Origin: an uncultured Actinomycetota bacterium
Lineage (GTDB): Bacteria; Actinomycetota; Humimicrobiia; Humimicrobiales; Humimicrobiaceae
NCBI GenBank assembly: GCA_964561115.1
Contig: CAZLOE010000003.1
Coordinates: 2,691 to 66,690, forward strand
Direction: 5' to 3'
Length of the DNA: 64,000 nucleotides
Positions 21,783-63,628 of the stretch are shown piece after piece (the stretch's first letter is position 1; each line of letters begins with the position of its first letter). The notes below the pieces were generated by a model. The model ran no database searches. It was not told the origin of the DNA and saw nothing but the letters and a program-made list of their open reading frames with translations. The position numbers and the translations under genes are program-made.

Positions 21783-23090
21783 CTATTCTACAAGTGAAAA
21801 AACCAGATCACCGATGATCACTGTGCTTCCTTCTTTAACACCCATCTTTTTTAACCTGTCTGCAATCCCCATTTTCTTAAGCCTGTTTTTTAAATGATCC
21901 AGTGCTTCCTCATTGCTCAGATCTGTCATTGCCACCATTCTCTCTATTTTCTTATTTTTAACCACATATTCACTGTTATTTTTTTCAATCTCAATTTTAT
22001 CCATCCCCGATTTACTATCATTCAGGCTGTAAACACTGACTTTCCCCGCTTTATCAGGACTGCTCTCTTCATCCTTCCGGATCTTTCTTCTATATTCATC
22101 TACTCTTTGATATAAATCTTCTACCAGTTTATCGAGGCCTTTTCCTGTGACCGCCGAAATCAGAAATACTTTTTTGCCACTTCTATTTTCAAGGACTTTT
22201 TTGATCTTGACCAGTTCACTGCTGTCCGGTACCAGATCGATTTTATTTATCACCACCACATAATCTTTTTTATATACATCAATATTATATAGTCTTATCT
22301 CTTCTCTTAAAATATCAAAAGTCTCAATTATTTCCTGTATTTTATCTATAATCCTCTGCCCGTCTAAGATCACCACAATCATTGCAGTTCTTGTTATGTG
22401 CCTTAAGAACTTATCTCCCAGACCGACTCCCCTGTGAGCGCCTTTTATCAATCCAGGCACATCCGCAACCACAAAATCTTCATCATTTATTTTTACCATT
22501 CCAAGATTGGGGGTTAAAGTGGTAAAGGGATAATCTGCAATCTTAGGTTTAGCAGCTGATATTCTGCTTATTATAGTAGATTTGCCTGAATTTGGAAATC
22601 CGACCAGTGCCACATCAGCGACAAGCCTAAGTTCCAGATTGACCCAGAAATCCTCTGTCTTTTCCCCTATTTCTGCAAAGGAAGGGAATCTTCTTTTGGA
22701 AGATACAAAACTCGAATTTCCCCTGCCTCCTATTCCACCTTTAGCAATGACAATCTTACTCCCTGAGCTGTCCAGGTCCGCAATTACATTTCCCCTATCA
22801 TCTTTGATTACTGTTCCGATAGGTACTTTTATAATTAAATCTTTCCCATCTTTTCCGTTTTTATTGTTTGATTCTCCTCTTTTACTGTTTTCAGCTTTAA
22901 AATGTATCTTTTTCCGGAATCCGTATAAGGTACTCAGATCTCCAGTGGCCCGTATGATCACATCTCCGCCTTTTCCTCCGTTCCCCCCGCTGGGGATCTT
23001 TTTTGCCCCGCTTTTCAATTTAAAAAAGGTGACAGCGCCGTCTCCGCCATTTCCAGCCTTTATATTGATTTTAGCTTCATCTAAAAACAT
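21783..23090 (-). CDS. obg: GTPase Obg/CgtA
   Basis: 435 aa. A Gly-rich Obg fold is followed by a GTPase (GFPNSGKST) and a TGS-like C-terminal domain. Confidence 0.95.
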   Translation of the reverse strand: MFLDEAKINIKAGNGGDGAVTFFKLKSGAKKIPSGGNGGKGGDVIIRATGDLSTLYGFRKKIHFKAENSKRGESNNKNGKDGKDLIIKVPIGTVIKDDRGNVIADLDSSGSKIVIAKGGIGGRGNSSFVSSKRRFPSFAEIGEKTEDFWVNLELRLVADVALVGFPNSGKSTIISRISAAKPKIADYPFTTLTPNLGMVKINDEDFVVADVPGLIKGAHRGVGLGDKFLRHITRTAMIVVILDGQRIIDKIQEIIETFDILREEIRLYNIDVYKKDYVVVINKIDLVPDSSELVKIKKVLENRSGKKVFLISAVTGKGLDKLVEDLYQRVDEYRRKIRKDEESSPDKAGKVSVYSLNDSKSGMDKIEIEKNNSEYVVKNKKIERMVAMTDLSNEEALDHLKNRLKKMGIADRLKKMGVKEGSTVIIGDLVFSLVE

Positions 23091-23151
23091 ATCATTCCGC
23101 GTTTTTTCCTTTCCCGGTCAAATCTTAAAACCATTAAGGACTTGGGTTTAA

Positions 23152-24168
23152 TCACAGTTTAAAAATCGCTTTATATATTTTTCTTTTCAGCATCAGATCC
23201 AGGCCCTTTTTAAAATCAGAAAGCGGAATAACTTCTGATATGAGAGGAGATAAATCCAACTTTTTTTCTATTACTATATCATAAGCCAGTTTTAAATCCT
23301 TTGGAGTCGCTGAATAAGAGCTTTTTATGACCAGTTCTCTTTTATATACTTTTTCAAAATCAATCTCGAATCTGCTTTCCTGGCCGGAAGCTCCGAAAAT
23401 ATTGATGGCTCCCCCGTCTCTGATATAAGAAAGAGCTTCACCCATAGTATTTTTGCTGGTCACAGTAAGTATGGCAATATCTGCACCAATACCAGTGATT
23501 TTTTTGACTTCTTTTAAAGTATCCTGACAGGACGGGTTTATAATGTAATCCGCTCCAATATTTTTAGCCTGAGATAACCGTCTGCTGTCCAGGTCAACAG
23601 CGATCACCCTGCCCCCTGAAAGTTTTATTAACTGGATAAAAAGCATTCCGATGACTCCTGATCCTACCACAGAAAATATGTCGTTTTTTAAAAATGTTAT
23701 TCTTTCCACAGCTCTAATACAGCAGGCCAGCGGCTCTATAAATAATGATTCAATAAGATTAAAATCGGCAGGTATTTTAAAGGTAGTATATTTTATATGT
23801 TCCTTTGATAATCTTATATACTGACAGAATGAACCAGGGAAAATATTAGTCTCCTTAAAGTGCCTGCACATAGAATGATTACCGTGCAGGCAGTAATGAC
23901 ATTGGTAACAGGGTATATGATGAGCTGCCACCACAATATCTCCCACATCAAATCCTTCTACATCCCCTCCTATTTCAATTATTTTTCCCACTACTTCGTG
24001 CCCGAACACTGCCGGTTTTTTAACTTCAGGATCAAATATTTTTACAATATCTGAACCGCATAGGCCTGTATACATCATCTCTATCAACATCTCATCTTCC
24101 TGTATCTCAGGCTTATCCATTTCTTCCAGTTTAAACTTATCCTTGTTATAACAGAACAGAGCTTTCAT
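23152..24168 (-). CDS. zinc-dependent alcohol/polyol dehydrogenase (MDR superfamily)
   Basis: 338 aa. Catalytic Zn ligands CGSD..H and a structural Zn Cys cluster (CYQCHYC). Rossmann motif GSGVIGM. Confidence 0.8.
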   Translation of the reverse strand: MKALFCYNKDKFKLEEMDKPEIQEDEMLIEMMYTGLCGSDIVKIFDPEVKKPAVFGHEVVGKIIEIGGDVEGFDVGDIVVAAHHIPCYQCHYCLHGNHSMCRHFKETNIFPGSFCQYIRLSKEHIKYTTFKIPADFNLIESLFIEPLACCIRAVERITFLKNDIFSVVGSGVIGMLFIQLIKLSGGRVIAVDLDSRRLSQAKNIGADYIINPSCQDTLKEVKKITGIGADIAILTVTSKNTMGEALSYIRDGGAINIFGASGQESRFEIDFEKVYKRELVIKSSYSATPKDLKLAYDIVIEKKLDLSPLISEVIPLSDFKKGLDLMLKRKIYKAIFKL

Positions 24169-25210
24169 AAGTATTACATCTTATATTATATTTTATACCT
24201 TTACCTTTACTCATAAGTTCCAATGCCTTTATCAGTTCTTCAAGCGGCATATCTGCTGTTATAAACTTAGCCGCATCAATACGGCCCGAGGTTATTAATC
24301 CAAATGCTTTACTCACATATTCAGGAGTATGATGGTACACGCCCTTTATATTCAGCTCCGAGTAGTGGATCAGACCTGTATCAATATTAATAGAAGTACC
24401 GGGCATGCAGCCCCCGAATAGATTTATCAAAGCACCTTTCCTGCCCATCAGTATAGTCATCTCCCATACTTTAGGGATCCCTGTAGCATCAATTGCTACA
24501 TCCACACCTCTATTACCTTCAGTCAATCTCTTTACCTCCAATACCTGATCAGATGCTTTAGCTGCGCTGACAGTATGATCTGCACCAAACTCACTTGCAT
24601 AACCCAGCCTTTCTTCTGACAGGTCAACCGATATTACAACCGCACCCTTAAGTTTGGCCAGCGCTACAAACATAAGACCGATAGGTCCTGCTCCGTTAAC
24701 CACTACTGTGCTTCCTGCTTCAATACCCGACTGCTCTACGCCGTGGACCACACAGGACAGCGGTTCCAGGATTGCTGCTTCCCGGTATTGTATATTATCA
24801 GGTAAAACAAATGAATTTTTTCTTAATATATTCCCTGGAACCCTTATATACTCAGCATAGGCACCATTGTTGTATACCAGATTCTCGCAAATGGAGTACC
24901 TGCCTATCTTGCAGTAATAGCACTTATAACAGGGTACACTGTTTACTGCTACTATCCTGTCTCCCACTTTGAAATTATCCACTTCATCACCTATCTCTAC
25001 AATATCACCCGACCATTCATGACCAAATACTGAAGCCTTTTTTATCATTTTAGGGTGGCCTCTCATATAAGTCTTCACATCCGAACCGCAGGTAAGCGCG
25101 CTTCTTATTTTCACCAGAGCTTCGCCCTCTCCTATCACAGGTATTTCTATTTCTTCATATCTTATATCCTGCGGACCATAAAACAGCTGAGCTTTCATTT
25201 TACCCTTCAT
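24146..25210 (-). CDS. zinc-dependent alcohol/polyol dehydrogenase (MDR superfamily), tandem paralogue
   Basis: 354 aa with CGSDV..H, CYKCYYC and GAGPIGLM. It overlaps the downstream paralogue by 23 nt. Confidence 0.8.
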   Translation of the reverse strand: MKGKMKAQLFYGPQDIRYEEIEIPVIGEGEALVKIRSALTCGSDVKTYMRGHPKMIKKASVFGHEWSGDIVEIGDEVDNFKVGDRIVAVNSVPCYKCYYCKIGRYSICENLVYNNGAYAEYIRVPGNILRKNSFVLPDNIQYREAAILEPLSCVVHGVEQSGIEAGSTVVVNGAGPIGLMFVALAKLKGAVVISVDLSEERLGYASEFGADHTVSAAKASDQVLEVKRLTEGNRGVDVAIDATGIPKVWEMTILMGRKGALINLFGGCMPGTSINIDTGLIHYSELNIKGVYHHTPEYVSKAFGLITSGRIDAAKFITADMPLEELIKALELMSKGKGIKYNIRCNTYESSVLL

Positions 25211-25361
25211 AAATCCTCACTGCTTTGATATCTTTAAAAAACCTTTTTTTAATATGTTACCTAAATATTACAGGAAGAATCTACCGAGTCAAGCAAATAA
25301 AAAACCATCAGTTTAAAATAATAAGTAAATATCTCTGCATTCTTACAGATGTTTTTCTAAT

Positions 25362-26162
25362 CTAAAAAAATAACTGCCTGCCGGTAAAACTGGAAAATAA
25401 ATCTAATGCTACTCTAATTATGGTTATGACCAGAAGTATAATAAAAGTGATTTTTATGACCTTCGGTTTTGTTTTTATATTTAGATATGTACCGATTCTT
25501 GAACCCGCGATAGATCCCAGAGCTACTGAAAGTCCTAAAAAGAAATCAAATCTGACCACCATAAGCTTTCCTATAACTCCAAATATCGAACTACAGAATA
25601 TAATCATAAGGGAGGTGCCTATAGCGATTTTTAAGGGGAAGCCAAAGATAAATACCAGAAGCGGGACATAAAGTGCTCCACCTCCGATTCCCAGTAAACC
25701 AAAAACAAATCCAGCTACTAATGAAATAGGTATGACCTTGAAATAGCATCTCTTATCCGGAACAAGATTTACCGCAATACTGCTTTCTTTAATATCTCTG
25801 CCGCTGTCTCTTTTTATATAAAATAATCCAATAGAAAGAATTGCAGCACAAATATAGACCATCTTTATAGCTGTAGCCGGTATGTATTTGGTAAAATATG
25901 AACCAAAAAAATAGCTGACAGCACTGGTAAGGCCCAAAATAAATCCAAATCTGATATTGATAGTTTTTTGGAGGTAATTAAACAGCGTCCCAAAAGAGCC
26001 GGCAAAGAAGGTCTGCAGTGCAGATATTGCCGTAGCGATCTTTACTTCTACATTAGTAATATATAACAATATTGGGAGGACCAACATACCGCCGCCTATT
26101 CCCAGAAACCCTGCTACAATCCCCCCTAATACTCCGATTCCAAAAAACTCTAAGTATTCCAT
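25362..26162 (-). CDS. TauE/SafE family anion (sulfite/sulfonate) exporter
   Basis: 266 aa with two repeated 4-TM halves (GIGGGML/GIGGGALYVP). Confidence 0.75.
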   Translation of the reverse strand: MEYLEFFGIGVLGGIVAGFLGIGGGMLVLPILLYITNVEVKIATAISALQTFFAGSFGTLFNYLQKTINIRFGFILGLTSAVSYFFGSYFTKYIPATAIKMVYICAAILSIGLFYIKRDSGRDIKESSIAVNLVPDKRCYFKVIPISLVAGFVFGLLGIGGGALYVPLLVFIFGFPLKIAIGTSLMIIFCSSIFGVIGKLMVVRFDFFLGLSVALGSIAGSRIGTYLNIKTKPKVIKITFIILLVITIIRVALDLFSSFTGRQLFF

Positions 26163-26287: not shown

Positions 26288-26542
26288 TTACGCAGAAATA
26301 ATATTTATTACTTTACCTTTTTTACTTCTCTTTACAAATTCAACTACGCCATCAGCCCTGGCAAAAAGAGTATGGTCTCTTCCCATACCGACATTAAGAC
26401 CCGGCTTATATTTAGTCCCCCTCTGCCTTACAAGAATATTTCCGGCATTGACCACCTGGCCTCCGGATTTTTTTATACCTAAAAATTTCGGATTACTGTC
26501 TCTTCCATTTCTGCTGCTTCCAACACCCTTTTTACTTGACAT
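26288..26542 (-). CDS. rpmA: 50S ribosomal protein L27
   Basis: 84 aa: [24 protein letters not shown]... Confidence 0.95.
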
Positions 26543-26554
26543 AAGTTTCTCCTA

Positions 26555-26875
26555 TTATTTTTTCTTCATATTTATTTTATCCATATGCAGTATAGTAAGT
26601 AACTGCCTGTGCCCTACCTTTCTCCTGTACCTTTTTTTGGGCTTATATTTAAAAGCAATTACTTTATCTCCCTTAATCTGTTTCATTATAGTAGCTTTGA
26701 CTTCAGCTTTTGAAAGTATAGGTTTACCGATCTCTATTTTATTACCATCACTTATAAGATTGACATCTTTAAGGGTGATCTTATCTCCTTCTTTTCCTTC
26801 AATTCTTTCTACTACTATATTTTTATTTTCTTCTACCTTATATTGTTTTCCGCCGCTTGTGATTATCGCGTAAAT
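26555..26875 (-). CDS. rplU: 50S ribosomal protein L21, non-AUG (ATT) start
   Basis: Not in the ORF track. Minus-strand translation is IYAIITSGGKQYKVEENKNIVVERIEGK...KVGHRQLLTILHMDKINMKKK, 106 codons. An in-frame TAA upstream leaves only ATT/ATA as possible starts. GGAGG lies 6 nt upstream of the ATT at 26875..26873. Confidence 0.8.
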   Translation of the reverse strand: MYAIITSGGKQYKVEENKNIVVERIEGKEGDKITLKDVNLISDGNKIEIGKPILSKAEVKATIMKQIKGDKVIAFKYKPKKRYRRKVGHRQLLTILHMDKINMKKK

Positions 26876-26974
26876 TTTAATCCTCCGTCTACTCTCTATA
26901 AATTACAGAGTGAAATATTAACACATACCATATAAATCTGTCAATTTCAAAGATTTGCTGTTCCCCAAGCCGTC

Positions 26975-28648
26975 CTAATCGCGTATCTCAGCTACTGCGC
27001 TGGTCCTGGAAATAGACTTGACTTCAACTTTTATTCTCTTACCTAAGTATTTTGCCCCTTCAATAATCTGGATGACAAACCCATTGACTCTGGAAATGGC
27101 ATCATTTTTATTGTAGAGGTAAGGCTCTTCTACTAATAAATCCAGCAAATCACCGACTTTAAACGGCTTGGCAGCATCTTTGATCTCAGCGATCGAACCT
27201 TCGGCAACTACTATAAAAGAATTAAGCGGCAGTTTTGGATCACCCTGAATATCTATATATTTTTTAGTTATATTCTCAAGATGTTTTAAGTTCTTCCCCT
27301 TAGTTCCTATCACAAGTGATGCAATTGCGGTGTTTAATTTTACCAAAAAACCTTTGGAATCACTTTCCCTGGCAAGCTTTCTTATTTTCCTCTCAGTTTC
27401 AAGAGTTATGGTGTCCTCAGATTTTATATATCCCGAACCTTCACAATAGGGACAGATTTTACACATAGTGTCCAGAATCCCGTCAGATACATTTTTTCTG
27501 GTCATTTCCAAAAGCCCGAATTTTGAGAATTGCGATACTTCAGTTTTAGTCCTATCGCTTTCAAGACAATTAAGAAACCTGTTAAAAACTTTATTCCTGT
27601 CCTTTTCACTCACCATATCAATGAAATCAATCACTATTATTCCCCCAATATCTCTAAGTTTCAACTGGCTTATAATAGTCTCAGCTGCCTCAAGATTTGT
27701 TCTCAATATAGTCTGGGCCGAGCTTTTACTTGAAGTATATTTACCAGTATTGACGTCGATTGATGTCATTGCTTCTCCATGATCTATCACTATGAATCCT
27801 CCTGATTTCAGCCATACTTTTCTCTCCAGAGCATTTTCTATGACCTCACTGACATGAAAAGCTTCAAAAAGATCTTCCTTGCCATGGTATAACATTATAT
27901 TGCTGAATTTAGATCCTATAGACTTAAGATATTTGATTATCTCCCTTTTGATCACTTTTTTATCTACATATATACTGCTGAATTCTTCCGAAAAAACATC
28001 CCTCATTATTTTTATGATAAGAGAATACTCGCTGGAAATTAATTTAGGTTTGGTCAGACCAGAAGCTCTTCTCTTGGTATGATCCCACTTCTTTCTAAGC
28101 TGCTTCAGGTCTTTTTTCAATACTGATATATCTGCTTTCCTTGCCGCAGTCCTTACAATCAGGCCACTGTCTTTATTATTTAATCCTTCTGCGATTTTTC
28201 TCAAGTCACCTCGCTCTTTATCACCAAGTCTTCTAGAAATACCTATTCCAGTATTAAACGGTGCCAGAACCAGATATCTGCCTGGTATGGATATGAAAGT
28301 AGTAAGCCGCGCTCCTTTTGTTTTCATGGGATCTTTTGTCACCTGTACCATTACCATCTGGTTAGGCTTCAGTACATACTGTATCTTTTTGGGGATCTCT
28401 TCACCTTCATCGATATCTATATCAAGACCGACTTCATTGACATACAGAAATGCATTTTTATCTTCTCCAATATCCACAAAAGCTGCATTCAGACTGGGTA
28501 GGACATTTTTAACCTTCCCCATATAGATATTTCCCACCAAAGATTTTTTGCTCTTTCGTTCAAAAAAGAGCTGAGTCACCTGTTTTGATTCAAGAATAGC
28601 GACTCTGGTCTCGTTTTTATCCAGACTGATTAACATTTCTTTATACAA
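26975..28648 (-). CDS. rng: ribonuclease G/E family endoribonuclease
   Basis: 557 aa with an S1 domain and the RNase E/G catalytic core. Confidence 0.85.
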   Translation of the reverse strand: MYKEMLISLDKNETRVAILESKQVTQLFFERKSKKSLVGNIYMGKVKNVLPSLNAAFVDIGEDKNAFLYVNEVGLDIDIDEGEEIPKKIQYVLKPNQMVMVQVTKDPMKTKGARLTTFISIPGRYLVLAPFNTGIGISRRLGDKERGDLRKIAEGLNNKDSGLIVRTAARKADISVLKKDLKQLRKKWDHTKRRASGLTKPKLISSEYSLIIKIMRDVFSEEFSSIYVDKKVIKREIIKYLKSIGSKFSNIMLYHGKEDLFEAFHVSEVIENALERKVWLKSGGFIVIDHGEAMTSIDVNTGKYTSSKSSAQTILRTNLEAAETIISQLKLRDIGGIIVIDFIDMVSEKDRNKVFNRFLNCLESDRTKTEVSQFSKFGLLEMTRKNVSDGILDTMCKICPYCEGSGYIKSEDTITLETERKIRKLARESDSKGFLVKLNTAIASLVIGTKGKNLKHLENITKKYIDIQGDPKLPLNSFIVVAEGSIAEIKDAAKPFKVGDLLDLLVEEPYLYNKNDAISRVNGFVIQIIEGAKYLGKRIKVEVKSISRTSAVAEIRD

Positions 28649-45909: not shown

Positions 45910-45996
45910 TGGTGCGAGAGAGGGGACTTGAACCCCTACAGGTGTTACCCCACTAGATCCTAAGTCTAGCGCGTCTGCCAATTCCGCCACTCTCGC
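45910..45996 (-). tRNA. tRNA-Leu (anticodon TAG), encoded CCA
   Basis: 87 nt cloverleaf with acceptor GCGAGAG/CTCTCGC, anticodon loop CTTAGGA, a long variable arm and a 3' CCA. Confidence 0.9.
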
Positions 45997-46001
45997 ATAA
46001 G

Positions 46002-46077
46002 TGGTGAGCCGTACAGGGATCGAACCTGTGACACCCTGATTAAGAGTCAGGTGCTCTACCAGCTGAGCTAACGGCCC
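46002..46077 (-). tRNA. tRNA-Lys (anticodon CTT), encoded CCA
   Basis: 76 nt with anticodon stem CCTGA/TCAGG, loop CTCTTAA and T-loop TTCGATC. Confidence 0.85.
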
Positions 46078-46092
46078 ACCTATATATAAATC

Positions 46093-46211
46093 TGGCACGC
46101 CTGGAGGGATTCGTTCTTTCGTCTCGCTTTGCTCGCTGCAGAGACGCGAGCTCCCTCATCTTCGATTCAGTCCGCTCTTTCGAATCCTGAAAACATGCCA
46201 CCGGCATGTTT
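46093..46211 (-). ncRNA. tRNA-3'-end-linked structured element, copy B
   Basis: 46093-46113 is an exact copy of tRNA-Arg(TCG) positions 46257-46277. The same conserved scaffold follows, ending in a hairpin at 46191-46211. Confidence 0.6.
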
Positions 46212-46256
46212 CCCCTGCCTACCTTGAACGTACCTATCGTTTTATATATATAAATA

Positions 46257-46333
46257 TGGCACGCCTGGAGGGATTCGAACCCCCGACGCACGGATTCGAA
46301 GTCCGACGCTCTATCCACCTGAGCTACAGGCGC
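46257..46333 (-). tRNA. tRNA-Arg (anticodon TCG), encoded CCA
   Basis: 77 nt with anticodon loop CTTCGAA and T-loop TTCGAAT. Confidence 0.8.
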
Positions 46334-46345
46334 AGGGTTTAAATA

Positions 46346-46422
46346 TGGGGTGAGAAACGGGGATCGAACCCGCGACCCCAGGATCCACAATCCTGTGCTC
46401 TACCAGCTGAGCTATTCTCACC
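46346..46422 (-). tRNA. tRNA-His (anticodon GTG), genome-encoded G-1 and CCA
   Basis: Anticodon loop TTGTGGA. An extra 5' G pairs with C73 to give the 8-bp acceptor stem typical of tRNA-His. Confidence 0.85.
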
Positions 46423-46489
46423 ATTTAATACTTTAAAAAACAAATTCTTACAGTTACATTACCCGATATTATTCCAAAACTTACAAATA

Positions 46490-46566
<77 letters not shown>

Positions 46567-46813
46567 AAAAACCCTAATATAATAATTATTATAGCAAATA
46601 AAATTTTATTATTAAAAAATGCCGGCAGTCCCTAAACCTCTCAAAACCAGATTAATACTTTAGTTAATATCATACCATAAGTCAAGGACGGTTTTAGCCG
46701 TAAAAAAATCTAAAACGGTTTCAAAATGCTATATCTGGCTTCTTTTATCTCATGCTTTAAACATGATAAAATAAATCAGTTAGACAGTATTAAAAACTAC
46801 GACAGGAGAACAA

Positions 46814-47101
46814 ATGGACTTTCTTATTGCCGCTTCTTCAACTATGATGACATCGCTACTGGTACTCTTTACTACAGTAGTTTTTTGTTTCATAATGCTT
46901 GGTTTTTTAATCAGTCTGGGATTGTTTGTACTGTGGATCATTACTCTTATAGATTGCGTAAGGAGAGATAATAAGGATTTTGTCTTCGGGGGCAAGGACG
47001 CTAAAGTACTCTGGATCCTTCTTCTGATCTTTTTCCGCCAAATCGCACCTATCATCTACTATTTACTTATAATGTATAAAAAAGGGGGGAAACCTAAATA
47101 G
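46814..47101 (+). CDS. small membrane protein, PLD-nuclease N-terminal (PLDc_N) domain family
   Basis: 95 aa with two TM helices flanking the motif WIITLIDCVRRDNKDF..GKDAKVLWILL. It is on the opposite strand inside the tRNA cluster. Confidence 0.55.
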   Translation: MDFLIAASSTMMTSLLVLFTTVVFCFIMLGFLISLGLFVLWIITLIDCVRRDNKDFVFGGKDAKVLWILLLIFFRQIAPIIYYLLIMYKKGGKPK

Positions 47102-47105
47102 AAAA

Positions 47106-47182
47106 TGGAGCGGGAAACGGGATTCGAACCCGCGACCCTCAGCTTGGAAGGCTGACGCTCTAGCCAACTGAGCTATTCCCGC
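47106..47182 (-). tRNA. tRNA-Gly (anticodon TCC), encoded CCA
   Basis: Acceptor GCGGGAA and anticodon loop CTTCCAA. Confidence 0.9.
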
Positions 47183-47187
47183 TCAAA

Positions 47188-47266
47188 TGGTCGGGGTGAG
47201 AGGATTTGAACCTCCGACCCCCTGCTCCCAAAGCAGGTGCGCTAAACCAAACTGCGCTACACCCCG
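47188..47266 (-). tRNA. tRNA-Pro (anticodon TGG), encoded CCA
   Basis: Acceptor CGGGGTG/CACCCCG, anticodon loop TTTGGGA with G37. Confidence 0.85.
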
Positions 47267-52195: not shown

Positions 52196-52543
52196 TGGTG
52201 GAGGCGGCGGGAATCGAACCCGCGTCCGAAGATATTGACACCTAGATATCTACAAGCTTATTCCACATTTTAATCTTACTTTTTCACTCGCATGGACGCG
52301 ATTAAAAAAGCCAGCCCGCATAAAATTTCCCCCGGTACTGCTGCAGGCATATCATACCGGAGTATCCTGCTAACCGGCGCCTGTCGAAAAGCACAGGAGA
52401 CCTTTCGCAGACGTAGCAGCTTAAATTAAGCTGCTAATGCTAATTTATTATTAGCGTTTATTTATAGTTCAGTTATTTACGAGTTCTGATACTCGACTTG
52501 CAATCCAAGCTCAACCTATCCCCGTCGAATCCAAGTCGCCCCC
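52196..52543 (-). ncRNA. ssrA: transfer-messenger RNA (tmRNA)
   Basis: The 5' end GGGGGCGACUUGGAUUCGACGGGG pairs with the 3' end ...CGCCUCCACCA, including a G3-U70 pair. T-arm GCGGGUUCGAUUCCCGC. Tag reading frame GCU AAU AAU AAA UUA GCA UUA GCA GCU UAA (ANNKLALAA). It lies immediately downstream of smpB. Confidence 0.9.
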
Positions 52544-57242: not shown

Positions 57243-58347
57243 TTACCCTTTGGATACTTTTTTTTCAAGAAAACCTCTTATCAGTTTATCTATATCACCG
57301 TCAAGCACTGACTGCACATCTCCAATCTCAATCCCTGTTCTGTGATCCTTGATCAACTGATACGGCTGAAGAACATAACTTCTTATTTGGTTCCCCCACC
57401 CTATTTCCTTCTTTTCTCCTCTGACTTTATTTATTTTCTCTATATTTTTTCTCTGCTCCAGCTCAAAAAGTTTTGACTTTAAGATCTGGATAGCAGTCTG
57501 CCTGTTTAGTATCTGGGATCTCTCATTCTGGCACTGTATTACAGTATTTGTTGGCATGTGCGTTATTCTGACAGCAGAATCAGTAACATTCACGTGCTGC
57601 CCACCGGCACTGCTGGACTTAAAAGTCTCTATCTTTAAGTCCTCTTTATTTATCTTTATATCAATATCCTTGTTTAAGAGCGGAATCACATCTACCAGGG
57701 TGAATGAAGTATGCCTTCTTTTAGATGAATCAAAAGGTGAAATCCTAACCAGTCTATGAATGCCTTTTTCTGATTTTAACAGCCCGTAAGCGTTTTTACC
57801 TTTTACGGTGAAAGTGACATTCTTTATTCCTGCTTCTTCACCTGCCTGATAATCATTAATAATATAAGAGAATTTCCTCTTATCCATCCACCTGGTATAC
57901 ATTCTAAACAGCATTTCAGCCCAATCCTGGGATTCTGTCCCTCCGGCTCCAGGATGAATAGTGACCACTGCAGGATAAGAATCATAATTACCGCTCAGCA
58001 GGACTTTTTCTTCCAGATCGCTTAATTTATTTTCTATATGGTAAAGATTTTCCACCAGTTCATTTTCCAGAGTTTTATCTTCCTCACTTTCCAGTATTTC
58101 TAGAGCCAGCTTGCAGTTTTCTGCTTTCTCTTCCAGGTTTTTTATACTTTCGATTATCTCGTTAAGATCATTGATCTCCTGGGAGATATTCTGTGCTTCT
58201 TCACGGTCGTCCCAGAAATTTTTTGAAAGGGTCTTATTACGAAGTTTTTCCAGCTTTGCAGCTTTATTATCTGTTTCAAAGACAGTCTTTCAGGAAAATA
58301 AGTTTCTTGGTTATTTTATCGAACTTTGACTTATGACCTTCTATCAT
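57243..58347 (-). CDS. prfB: peptide chain release factor 2, programmed +1 frameshift (join 58347..58279 and 58277..57243)
   Basis: ORF1 MIEGHKSKFDKITKKLIFLKDCL ends at CTT TGA (58281..58276). Shifting +1 after CTT gives ETDNKAAKLEKLRNKTLSKNFWDDREEAQ... joined in frame to the annotated 270-aa ORF. GGAGG lies 5 nt upstream of the ATG at 58347. The product is 367 aa. Confidence 0.85.
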
Positions 58348-61790: not shown

Positions 61791-62495
61791 TTATATTCCT
61801 CTGGCAAAAGTCAATAAATAAATTTTAGCCGCACCAGCTTTCTTTAAAACACTGGCAATCTCGTTCAAAGTACTACCTGTAGTCCAGACATCATCTACCA
61901 GCATCAGATTTTTCCTCCGGGTAAGGAGACAGTTCTTCACCTTAAATGCTTCTTTTATATTACTTTTTCTCTGTACAGAATCAAGTCCCTGCTGCTTTAG
62001 CACTTCCTTTACTCTCAATATATTCCCAGCAAAAGGTAACCTGATTGATTTTGACAATCCTCTGCATAAAACCTCCATATGTTCACCAGGTACCGTATCT
62101 ATGTAATCTATCTTTTCAAATTTATAGTTTTCAGTATAAGTCTTAATCAAAAAAGCAATTATAATTTCTTTTAAAGCATTTATCCTGCTGTATTTATATT
62201 TTGCGATAATTTTTTTTATCTTTCCTTTATATACAGCAAAACTCCTGTGCCTGTAAAACTTAAAATTTTTATCCCTGCAATAATTACATCCTCTGCTATC
62301 TGAATCATTTAGGAATAACGGCCTGCCGCAGTATCTGCATATTTTATTTTCTATTTTTTCGATATCAGACGCGCACTCCCGACAGAGTAATTCAAAGCTG
62401 ATTTTTCCGCAAACCGCACATATGGGTGGAATGATAATATCTTTAAAAATATCAGTCAAATTTCTATTATTTTTACCTGTTACTTTAGGTATCAA
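61791..62495 (-). CDS. comFC: ComF family protein (ComFC; zinc ribbon plus phosphoribosyltransferase domain)
   Basis: 234 aa with an N-terminal CxxC...CxxC ribbon and the PRT motif [14 protein letters not shown]. Confidence 0.8.
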
Positions 62496-63609
62496 TATCG
62501 ATTATTTCATTGGACATAACTTTTACACTTGGATGGATTTTTATTCCATCCTTAATAACGCTTCTGGAACCTATAACCGCTTTTTCCAGAATCGAAGCCT
62601 TATCTTTTATCTTTGTATTATAACCTATAATAGCTCCTATCAGAGAGGCATCCTTTCCTATATAACCGCTTCCCCATTTTATTCCTCTATACAGAACTGC
62701 CCTCTCATCTACTATAGTATTATTTCCCAAAATAATGGGACCAAAAAGTTTTGCACCTTTCTTTATGGTGCAATTGTCTCCGATACATACCGGAGGAGTT
62801 ATCACGACACCTTCCTGGATCTTACAATTCTTCCCCACCCAGACTCCATCTTTTATTTCCTTTCCGGGAATATCAACCTTTACCTTTCCTTCAAGTGCAT
62901 CAAAATTACCCTGCTGATATTCATCCAGACCACCGACATCATTCCAATACTGATTATGCTGGTAGCCGTAATATTTAATATTCTTCTTTAACAGATCGGG
63001 AAAAAGATCCTTTCCGAAATCGTAAAATTTTCCCTTGGCAGGTAAATAATCAAATATCTCCGGCTCAAAAATATATATTCCGCTGTTTGCAAGATTTGAC
63101 TTTGCCTTTCCACTCAATGGTTTTTCCTGGAAACCTCTTATCCTTTTATCTTCATCCAGCAATACTACACCGTACTTTGAAGTATCTTCTACTTCAGTTA
63201 AGACTATTGTGGCTATACCGCCTTTCTGCTTATGAAATCTAAACACTCTGGTCAAATCAATGTCAGTCAGAGCATCGCCGCTTATTACCATAAAGGTATT
63301 GTTTTCAAAAAAATCTTCTACATTATTTACTCCTCCTGCGGTGCCCAGCAGCTCTTCCTCATATGAATAAACAATGTTTATTTTCCATCTTGATCCGTCA
63401 CCAAAATAGTTTTTTATCTCTTCCGGATACCAGTGCAGATTACAGACAATATCTGTAAATTTATGTTTGACCAGAAGTCTTATAATATGCTCCATAACCG
63501 GCCTGTTGACTATAGGCGCCATTGGCTTTGATATTAAGTCTGTAAGCGGCCTAAGCCTTGTTCCAAGACCTGCTGCTAATACTATTGCCTTTTTATTTTT
63601 TATTATAAT
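62485..63609 (-). CDS. sugar-phosphate nucleotidyltransferase with C-terminal left-handed beta-helix (eIF2B gamma/epsilon-like); non-AUG start
   Basis: The ORF-track ATG at 63522 is internal. Upstream in frame reads ...I I K N K K A I V L A A G L G T R L R P L T with no ATG/GTG/TTG after a TGA stop. AAGGAG (63621..63616) lies 6 nt upstream of the ATT at 63609. The protein has an NTP-transferase fold followed by hexapeptide repeats. Confidence 0.7.
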   Translation of the reverse strand: MIIKNKKAIVLAAGLGTRLRPLTDLISKPMAPIVNRPVMEHIIRLLVKHKFTDIVCNLHWYPEEIKNYFGDGSRWKINIVYSYEEELLGTAGGVNNVEDFFENNTFMVISGDALTDIDLTRVFRFHKQKGGIATIVLTEVEDTSKYGVVLLDEDKRIRGFQEKPLSGKAKSNLANSGIYIFEPEIFDYLPAKGKFYDFGKDLFPDLLKKNIKYYGYQHNQYWNDVGGLDEYQQGNFDALEGKVKVDIPGKEIKDGVWVGKNCKIQEGVVITPPVCIGDNCTIKKGAKLFGPIILGNNTIVDERAVLYRGIKWGSGYIGKDASLIGAIIGYNTKIKDKASILEKAVIGSRSVIKDGIKIHPSVKVMSNEIIDIDT

Positions 63610-63628
63610 TATGCACTCCTTATTTTGT

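Follow-up and report, generated by a model that had tools for sequence, protein, structure and literature searches.

The gene for ribosomal protein bL21 (rplU) appears to begin with AUU rather than with a canonical initiation codon throughout the sampled members of the class Candidatus Humimicrobiia, and in the window—the whole 64-kb stretch of DNA analysed here, with a G+C content of 38%—comparison with related genomes strongly supports AUU at 26875-26873 as the point from which L21 is translated. This start had been proposed in the earlier note and is borne out, the homologous codon being ATT in 10/10 assemblies of the same organism and in 45/46 further species-level genomes. Taking the evidence together, we consider it quite probable that an AUU start, assisted by a strong Shine-Dalgarno (SD) sequence and a strong promoter, is ancestral in this group, has been selected over AUG, and has been kept, as we infer, for an IF3- or ppGpp-sensitive tuning of translation.

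Translation of positions 26875-26558 on the minus strand yields a protein of 106 aa that begins IYAIITSGGKQYKV... (IYAIITSGGKQYKVEENK...). This protein matched the Pfam profile Ribosomal_L21p (PF00829) with an E-value of 2.9e-33 and 114.5 bits, for a cut-off of 27, and its residues 2-101 map to profile positions 2-99 of 99, which identifies it as a full-length member of the family and upholds the earlier reading of an L21 gene in the gap between rng and rpmA. That gap had been put at about 100 nt, a figure that fits the 99 nt separating the ATT from the end of rng at its stop codon, but not the interval between rng and rpmA, which measures 432 nt. Residues 1-102 align with residues 1-101 of the solved Bacillus subtilis bL21 (3j3v_R), and residues 1-97 with residues 1-97 of the Escherichia coli bL21 chain 10qm_Z; because the alignments to these solved chains run from residue 1, the ATT occupies the canonical Met1 position. 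The genomic context is likewise that of bL21, with rpmA lying 12 nt downstream of rplU in an arrangement common to all relatives. rplU is an intact gene that encodes a full-length bL21.

The pattern of substitution extends this conclusion to the N-terminal part of the frame. Across 47 genomes, pN/pS is ~0.2 on either side of the first canonical codon, and codons 2-73, which precede any canonical start, show a mean pN of 0.148 and a mean pS of 0.676; since the ratio is alike on both sides of that codon, the N-terminal part of L21 is evidently translated in the rplU frame. Residues 2-13 (YAIITSGGKQYK) form the best-conserved part of the protein and carry synonymous changes, a combination that marks them, too, as translated.

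Table 1. Coordinates of the rplU locus and of two further genes of the window that contain long open stretches lacking a canonical start
Feature	Position	Strand	Basis or detail
rplU (bL21) CDS	26555..26875	-	106 codons plus TAA stop at 26557-26555
Proposed ATT initiation codon, canonical Met1 position	26873..26875	-	ATT 46/47, ATA 1/47
Shine-Dalgarno GGAGG with 6-nt A-rich spacer (ATTAAA)	26882..26886	-	Sequence reading
In-frame TAA closing the rplU frame upstream	26903..26905	-	Sequence reading
Promoter-like TTGACA-N18-TAATAT, TG before the second hexamer	26915..26944	-	10/12 consensus matches
Internal ATG, rplU codon 64, heading the 43-aa ORF/fragment of gene callers	26684..26686	-	ORF listing
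rpmA (bL27)	26288..26542	-	Pfam PF01016, E 1.5e-35; ATG start; own AGGAG at 26553-26549
rng/rne-family ribonuclease	26975..28648	-	Pfam RNase_E_G, E 6.7e-94; stop 99 nt ahead of the ATT
prfB (release factor 2), programmed +1 frameshift	57243-58347	-	CTT TGA A
NTP_transferase plus hexapeptide-repeat gene	62485-63609	-	Start region 63601-63621; no ATG/GTG/TTG before the essential glycine-rich loop

Upstream of the proposed start, the rplU frame is closed by a TAA (26905-26903) and runs from there through TTT ATA GAG AGT AGA CGG AGG ATT AAA into the ATT. The earlier note had correctly placed an in-frame TAA upstream but gave its distance as 8 codons, whereas it is the tenth codon before the ATT, with nine codons between the two. 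From this TAA to codon 64, the rplU frame contains no ATG, GTG or TTG, and inspection of the window's 5' UTR in all frames revealed none either. The possible starts had been narrowed to ATA and ATT, which is correct as to the type of codon; the in-frame AUH candidates, however, number three, namely ATA 26899-26897, ATT 26881-26879 and ATT 26875-26873. As had also been read before, a GGAGG (26886-26882) stands exactly 6 nt ahead of the last of these, and this sequence is among the strongest SD cores of the window. Every relative retains an SD ~5-7 nt upstream of the ATT, in the form of GGAGG in 43/47, GGGGG in 2 and AAGGAG in 2.

Conservation of the start codon was assessed within the organism and across its class. 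An exact look-up of the adjacent L27 led to ten contigs, each derived from a separate sample (JGI, ENA and Logan), and in all ten of these independent metagenome assemblies the ATT is present with the same context. A scan with one genome per species recovered 46 further Humimicrobiia-like loci, whose L21 identity ranges from 91% down to 62%; the rplU start is ATT in 45 of them, at L21 identities down to 67%, and ATA in the most divergent one (L056). With the window included, the 47 species-level sequences thus comprise 46 with ATT, one with ATA and none with ATG, GTG or TTG. The relatives retrieved by L21 are Actinomycetota MAGs, some of them named Candidatus Hydromicrobium or Candidatus Humimicrobiaceae, which represent two families of the class Candidatus Humimicrobiia. 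A comparison of orthologous rplU start regions had been suggested as a check on the AUU proposal, and the conserved ATT backs it.

Beyond the class, the outgroups recovered by the species scan start rplU at ATG, Companilactobacillus, Limosilactobacillus and one Armatimonadia genome included; in a Chisholmbacteria genome the ATG lies one codon further upstream (M-K-Y), and three separately fetched distant contigs (L171, L172 and L174), which are not clearly sister lineages, also carry ATG. We searched for the boundary of the ATT with the Rng protein, and among the 120 matches listed all were clade members with at least 65% identity. Searches with L21, using the window and L056 as queries, returned nothing intermediate: the clade extends down to ~58% identity, and the other lineages, which appeared at identities of 59% and below, or 47% and below, are unrelated and start at ATG. 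The AUU start is ancestral to the sampled Humimicrobiia.

The constancy of the ATT can be set against the turnover of synonymous sites, which are saturated over the 47 rplU sequences (mean pairwise pS 0.68-0.72). Ordinary isoleucine codons of the gene vary: codon 5 is ATT in 28, ATC in 9 and ATA in 6 cases, and codon 25 across the 47 genomes is ATA in 19, ATT in 14 and ATC in 11. A third base fixed in at least 46/47 genomes occurs at just two of the 104 codons, the ATT at codon 1 and the TAC at codon 2. When parsimony steps were counted on a neighbour-joining tree built from the L21 protein, third positions showed a median of 9 steps (range 0-20), and the start codon a single step, to A and never to G; this non-canonical codon is conserved beyond neutral expectation (46/47 ATT; 1 step against a median of 9). 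ATG is one T-to-G change away yet absent throughout, which indicates that a canonical rplU start is selected against. The neighbouring genes follow the usual rule, as rpmA starts with ATG in 46/46 relatives and rng, in the 42 relatives compared, with TTG in 39, ATG in 2 and GTG in 1. Saturated synonymous sites, a near-fixed third base and canonical starts in the neighbours together mark the ATT as gene-specific and held by selection. These comparisons argue that selection keeps the rplU start as AUU, against reversion to AUG.

As a side observation, the TTG of rng (39/42; loci L011-L056) is a conserved weak canonical start in the gene next to rplU and its conserved AUU. Codon 2 of rplU (26870-26872, minus strand) is TAC in 47/47 Humimicrobiia and in nearly all outgroups, and the tyrosine at codon 12 is mostly encoded by TAT; the fixed TAC suggests a nucleotide-level constraint at +4 to +6 of the initiation region.

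Further upstream lies a promoter-like site whose hexamers, TTGACA at 26944-26939 and TAATAT at 26920-26915, are the best match in the region, and both TTGACA and the second hexamer are kept in nearly the whole class. Placed by reference to these hexamers, transcription is predicted to start near 26908, which would give a 5' UTR of ~30-35 nt in the group of the window; for deeper branches the predicted 5' UTR is longer. Directly after the second hexamer (26901-26912, minus strand) we observed a motif, CA(C/A)TCTGT(A/G)ATT, that is conserved in nearly all of the class (loci L011-L056) and is kept even where the 5' UTR is of another length; the motif probably spans the site at which transcription begins and the bases transcribed first. 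Elsewhere in the window this motif gave 4 matches against 3.4 expected, none beyond chance. At gathering score, an Rfam scan of the window gave no hit to a leader or riboswitch in the vicinity of rplU, the L21 leader RNA (RF00559) included. The minimum-energy fold of the rplU 5' UTR pairs CUCUGU with part of the SD, and a conserved SD-sequestering hairpin was considered on this ground; we dropped it, as the z-score is only -1.4 and an RNAalifold consensus of 27 rplU leaders contained 0 pairs.

The order of genes around rplU is radical SAM, DUF2344, rng/rne, rplU, rpmA, TauE, two alcohol dehydrogenases and obg-proB-proA, and the minus strand holds nearly all genes of the window. From the rplU stop (26557-26555) to the rpmA ATG (26542) there are 12 nt, too few to accommodate a Prp/ysxB gene, so that the earlier statement that no ysxB-like ORF lies between rplU and rpmA stands. 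L27 begins MSSKKGVG, with residue 3 on position 2 of the Pfam profile, and lacks an N-terminal extension; with no Prp in the 12-nt gap either, the locus departs from the Firmicute-type rplU-ysxB(Prp)-rpmA operon. Since rpmA has an SD and an ATG of its own, it may be translatable independently of rplU. On the minus strand at 21786-26162, the genes for a TauE-family exporter and two zinc alcohol dehydrogenases interrupt the series rplU-rpmA-obg-proB-proA, and in L004 and L007, two variants at strain level, an HD-domain gene is inserted as well, placed between rpmA and TauE. A motif search of the window for infC, rpmI and rplT found none. Among other translation-related loci, the minus strand carries a cluster of seven tRNA genes at 45910-47266 (Leu, Lys, Arg, His, Arg, Gly and Pro, the initiator tRNA being absent from the cluster) and a tmRNA gene at 52196-52543 with the tag ANNKLALAA.

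The likeliest reason for keeping so weak a start, by analogy with infC, would be a translational tuning sensitive to IF3 or ppGpp. The initiator tRNA would presumably read AUU 26875-26873 as formyl-Met, and initiation there would be supported by the strong GGAGG 6 nt upstream, the A-rich spacer and a strong dedicated promoter. With so weak a start, L21 synthesis would depend on how faithful and how available the initiation machinery is. IF3 is known to repress non-canonical starts, Streptomyces included, and the start of infC itself, ATT in E. coli and ATC in Streptomyces, serves autoregulation (PMC5472188); if IF3 discriminates against the AUU of rplU as it does in infC, the output of L21 would be sensitive to IF3 activity. 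ppGpp and nutrient limitation preferentially inhibit non-AUG mRNAs, although context matters (PMC5499595), and with such sensitivity L21 output would follow the stringent response. For the E. coli rplU-rpmA operon, the passage of PMC10931766 that cites Aseev 2016 reports no autogenous feedback, and an AUU start could give translational tuning to an operon of this kind.

More tentatively, the class-wide AUU may place L21, and possibly the whole rplU-rpmA message, under IF3- and/or ppGpp-dependent control. Were this the case, a start-codon mechanism would replace the autogenous leader control of other r-protein operons, and the supply of a large-subunit protein would be coupled to the condition of the initiation machinery. 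A bolder form of this reading would hold that the stringency of initiation has shifted in Humimicrobiia and that rplU is the most visible member of a larger AUH-initiated set. L21 is needed in ribosome-equal amounts, so such a weak start is counter-intuitive; an AUU reporter in E. coli yields ~1-2% of the output of AUG (bioRxiv 10.1101/063800). The weak start of L21 may be tolerable only through slow growth together with the strong promoter and SD, and derepression of L21 under scarce IF3 is not obviously homeostatic.

The main rival to regulatory tuning accepts the AUU as real but grants it no regulatory role: fixed by chance in the ancestor, it would simply set a low level of expression that promoter and SD offset. 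We regard this as possible, if doubtful. It accords with the strength and conservation of the SD and promoter, with the leader analyses, in which no conserved structure or other regulatory element was found, with the probably slow growth of these sediment or subsurface organisms, as judged from the sources of the samples, and with the remark in PMC5499595 that certain rare start codons do no more than fix expression at a low level. If the level of expression were all that mattered, however, an ATG with a weaker SD, or a GTG or TTG, would serve equally well, and none of these occurs among 47 genomes saturated for synonymous change; AUA and AUC, moreover, are also weak in an E. coli reporter (10.1101/063800), yet AUU is found in 46/47. 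Given the absence of ATG, GTG and TTG variants, level-setting alone fits less well than a regulatory role.

A second alternative is that start stringency is relaxed lineage-wide, for instance by changes in IF3 or in the initiator tRNA, so that AUH starts are common and rplU is one of many. All ~58 ORFs of the window were scanned for long open stretches without a canonical start, and two further cases besides rplU emerged, the prfB frameshift and the NTP_transferase/hexapeptide gene. In prfB, frame 0 opens at ATG 58347 and extends for 23 codons to CTT TGA A (TGA 58278-58276), the classic arrangement, beyond which the PCRF and RF-1 domains are read in the +1 frame. No obvious SD-like stimulator immediately precedes the slippery CTT. 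The NTP_transferase gene presents ATA, ATT, ATA and ATA after an AAGGAG, and the match to its Pfam profile sets in at residue 7 when ATT 63609 is taken as residue 1. As a second window gene without a canonical start, it would speak for relaxed stringency, 2 of ~58 being far above the typical bacterial frequency. In a metagenome scan, however, the codon corresponding to the window's ATA 63603-63601 is ATG in a relative of 98% identity and in ~35 further loci, and the ATA occurs only in the window and in one 100%-identical contig (L127), which looks like a recent, local or strain-specific ATG-to-ATA change. The non-canonical start of rplU is thus ancient and fixed, and that of the NTP_transferase gene recent and local. 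With this case confined to a strain or species, with rpmA and rng canonical in all relatives, and with no other window gene in need of a non-canonical start—the other large gap being the prfB frameshift—we judge a lineage-wide relaxation unlikely.

The choice of start also bears on how L21 is recorded in public databases. The ten public contigs of this organism divide into five with a 43-aa 'Ribosomal_L21p' call only and five with no call, in agreement with the earlier expectation that ORF finders limited to ATG, GTG and TTG would miss rplU. Prodigal-type calls for relatives are fragments of 73, 84 or 91 aa or N-extended forms; the L21 lengths recorded for the class vary with the annotation pipeline (43, 73, 77, 84, 91, 101, 104-106, 109-128 and 138 aa), and within one 90%-identity cluster the same L21 gene is given as 77, 84, 101, 105, 123 and 138 aa. 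Gene finders miss or truncate L21 in this class because of its ATT start. Where L21 serves as a single-copy marker, as in the sets used for genome completeness and phylogenomics, completeness estimates and marker alignments for the class would be affected in a systematic manner. The ATT start is not unknown to databases, since several GenBank L21 proteins of relatives begin exactly at the ATT, read as Met, among them MBU4292969.1, which maps onto the ATT of locus L041. Other GenBank entries start one codon upstream (L046), at an ATT at codon 5 (L032), at an internal ATT (L049) or at an ATG at codon 5 (L045), and the records use at least four different start positions in all. The ATT start is implicit in some database records and is applied inconsistently. 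Our literature search found no paper linking rplU or L21 to an AUU/ATT start, and none on Humimicrobiia that mentions one.

In principle another codon could serve as the start of L21, either upstream (ATA 26899 or ATT 26881) or, among canonical codons, downstream (the ATG at codon 64, or a GTG at codon 22 in some relatives), or translation could enter by frameshift from a short upstream ORF, and gene callers and some GenBank records do pick such positions, in versions of 43, 73, 84, 101, 113 and 123 aa; we nevertheless consider this very unlikely. On the upstream side, an in-frame stop lies 2 to 27 codons ahead of the ATT in relatives, leaving 1 to 26 open codons; in many of them it stands at four to six codons and in L033, as a TAA, at two. 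L004 and L007, both variants at strain level, have ACA where the window has ATA 26899. The codon homologous to ATT 26881 differs among relatives and borders directly on the SD, and the window's 5' UTR offers no ATG, GTG or TTG in any frame. On the downstream side, a later start would leave untranslated the very residues, 2-13, whose conservation and synonymous changes indicate translation. The internal ATG and GTG codons are, moreover, unconserved and lack an SD in the window. Codon 64 encodes mostly Lys in relatives, and its ATG is for this reason not a conserved alternative start; a GTG stands at codon 22 in 19/47 genomes, and an ATG at codon 5 in one (L045). Some relatives have an ATG within ATGGAGG, the frame of which shifts with the SD spacing and coincides with that of rplU only in L015, L023 and L025; the in-frame ATG inside the SD of these three, and that at codon 5 of L045, might be used as start there. 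Least of all do we credit a sequencing or assembly error or an rplU pseudogene, for which nothing more than the missing canonical start can be adduced and which we rejected as exceedingly improbable: the ATT is identical in all ten assemblies, each from its own sample, and recurs in 45 of the 46 further species-level genomes, which excludes the loss of an ATG by sequencing error, a possibility the earlier note had raised, and the frame is intact with a pN/pS of ~0.2.

To our knowledge, conserved non-canonical starts have been documented for very few bacterial genes, and rplU can be compared with three of them. With infC it shares a role as a core translation gene, a conserved AUH start, the need for a good SD, and a tendency to be missed or mis-started by gene finders (PMC5472188, PMC5499595); as in infC, AUU stands at the initiator Met position and no usable canonical start is present. 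The likeness is partial, as the infC product, IF3, itself discriminates against the codon and so closes an autoregulatory loop, whereas L21 has no known role in start-codon selection, and any dependence of rplU on IF3 would be control by another factor. pcnB, the E. coli gene for poly(A) polymerase and one of only two confirmed non-canonical starts in that species, offers the example of a translation-limiting AUU start in a gene other than that for IF3 (bioRxiv 10.1101/063800). Its product, however, is a low-abundance enzyme, and its start alternates between AUG, GUG and UUG in other phyla (bioRxiv 10.1101/063800), whereas L21 is an abundant structural protein with an AUU fixed across the class. 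sigR of Streptomyces is likewise actinobacterial, with a conserved non-canonical start that was mis-annotated in all genomes; it differs in its codon (GTC), in encoding a regulatory sigma factor, and in that repression by IF3 was demonstrated experimentally (PMC5472188), rplU being known from sequence alone.

Compared with rplU-rpmA of E. coli and Firmicutes, the locus has the same gene pair, in the same order and with a dedicated promoter. An RNase E/G gene upstream of rplU is usual in Actinomycetota. The obg-proB-proA genes downstream of rplU-rpmA are here displaced by the three inserted genes. The sampled outgroups differ in starting rplU at ATG, and Firmicutes in carrying ysxB/Prp and an L21 leader RNA, both of which are absent here. 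The retention of AUU by a core ribosomal protein gene across a whole class of Actinomycetota provides a clear natural instance of selection favouring a weak start, and it offers a testable hypothesis of how an r-protein operon without autogenous feedback could be tuned. Set beside infC, pcnB and sigR, the AUU of rplU adds a new and well-conserved case, in an unexpected class of gene and with clear practical consequences for annotation, to a known phenomenon; a regulatory meaning is plausible by analogy.
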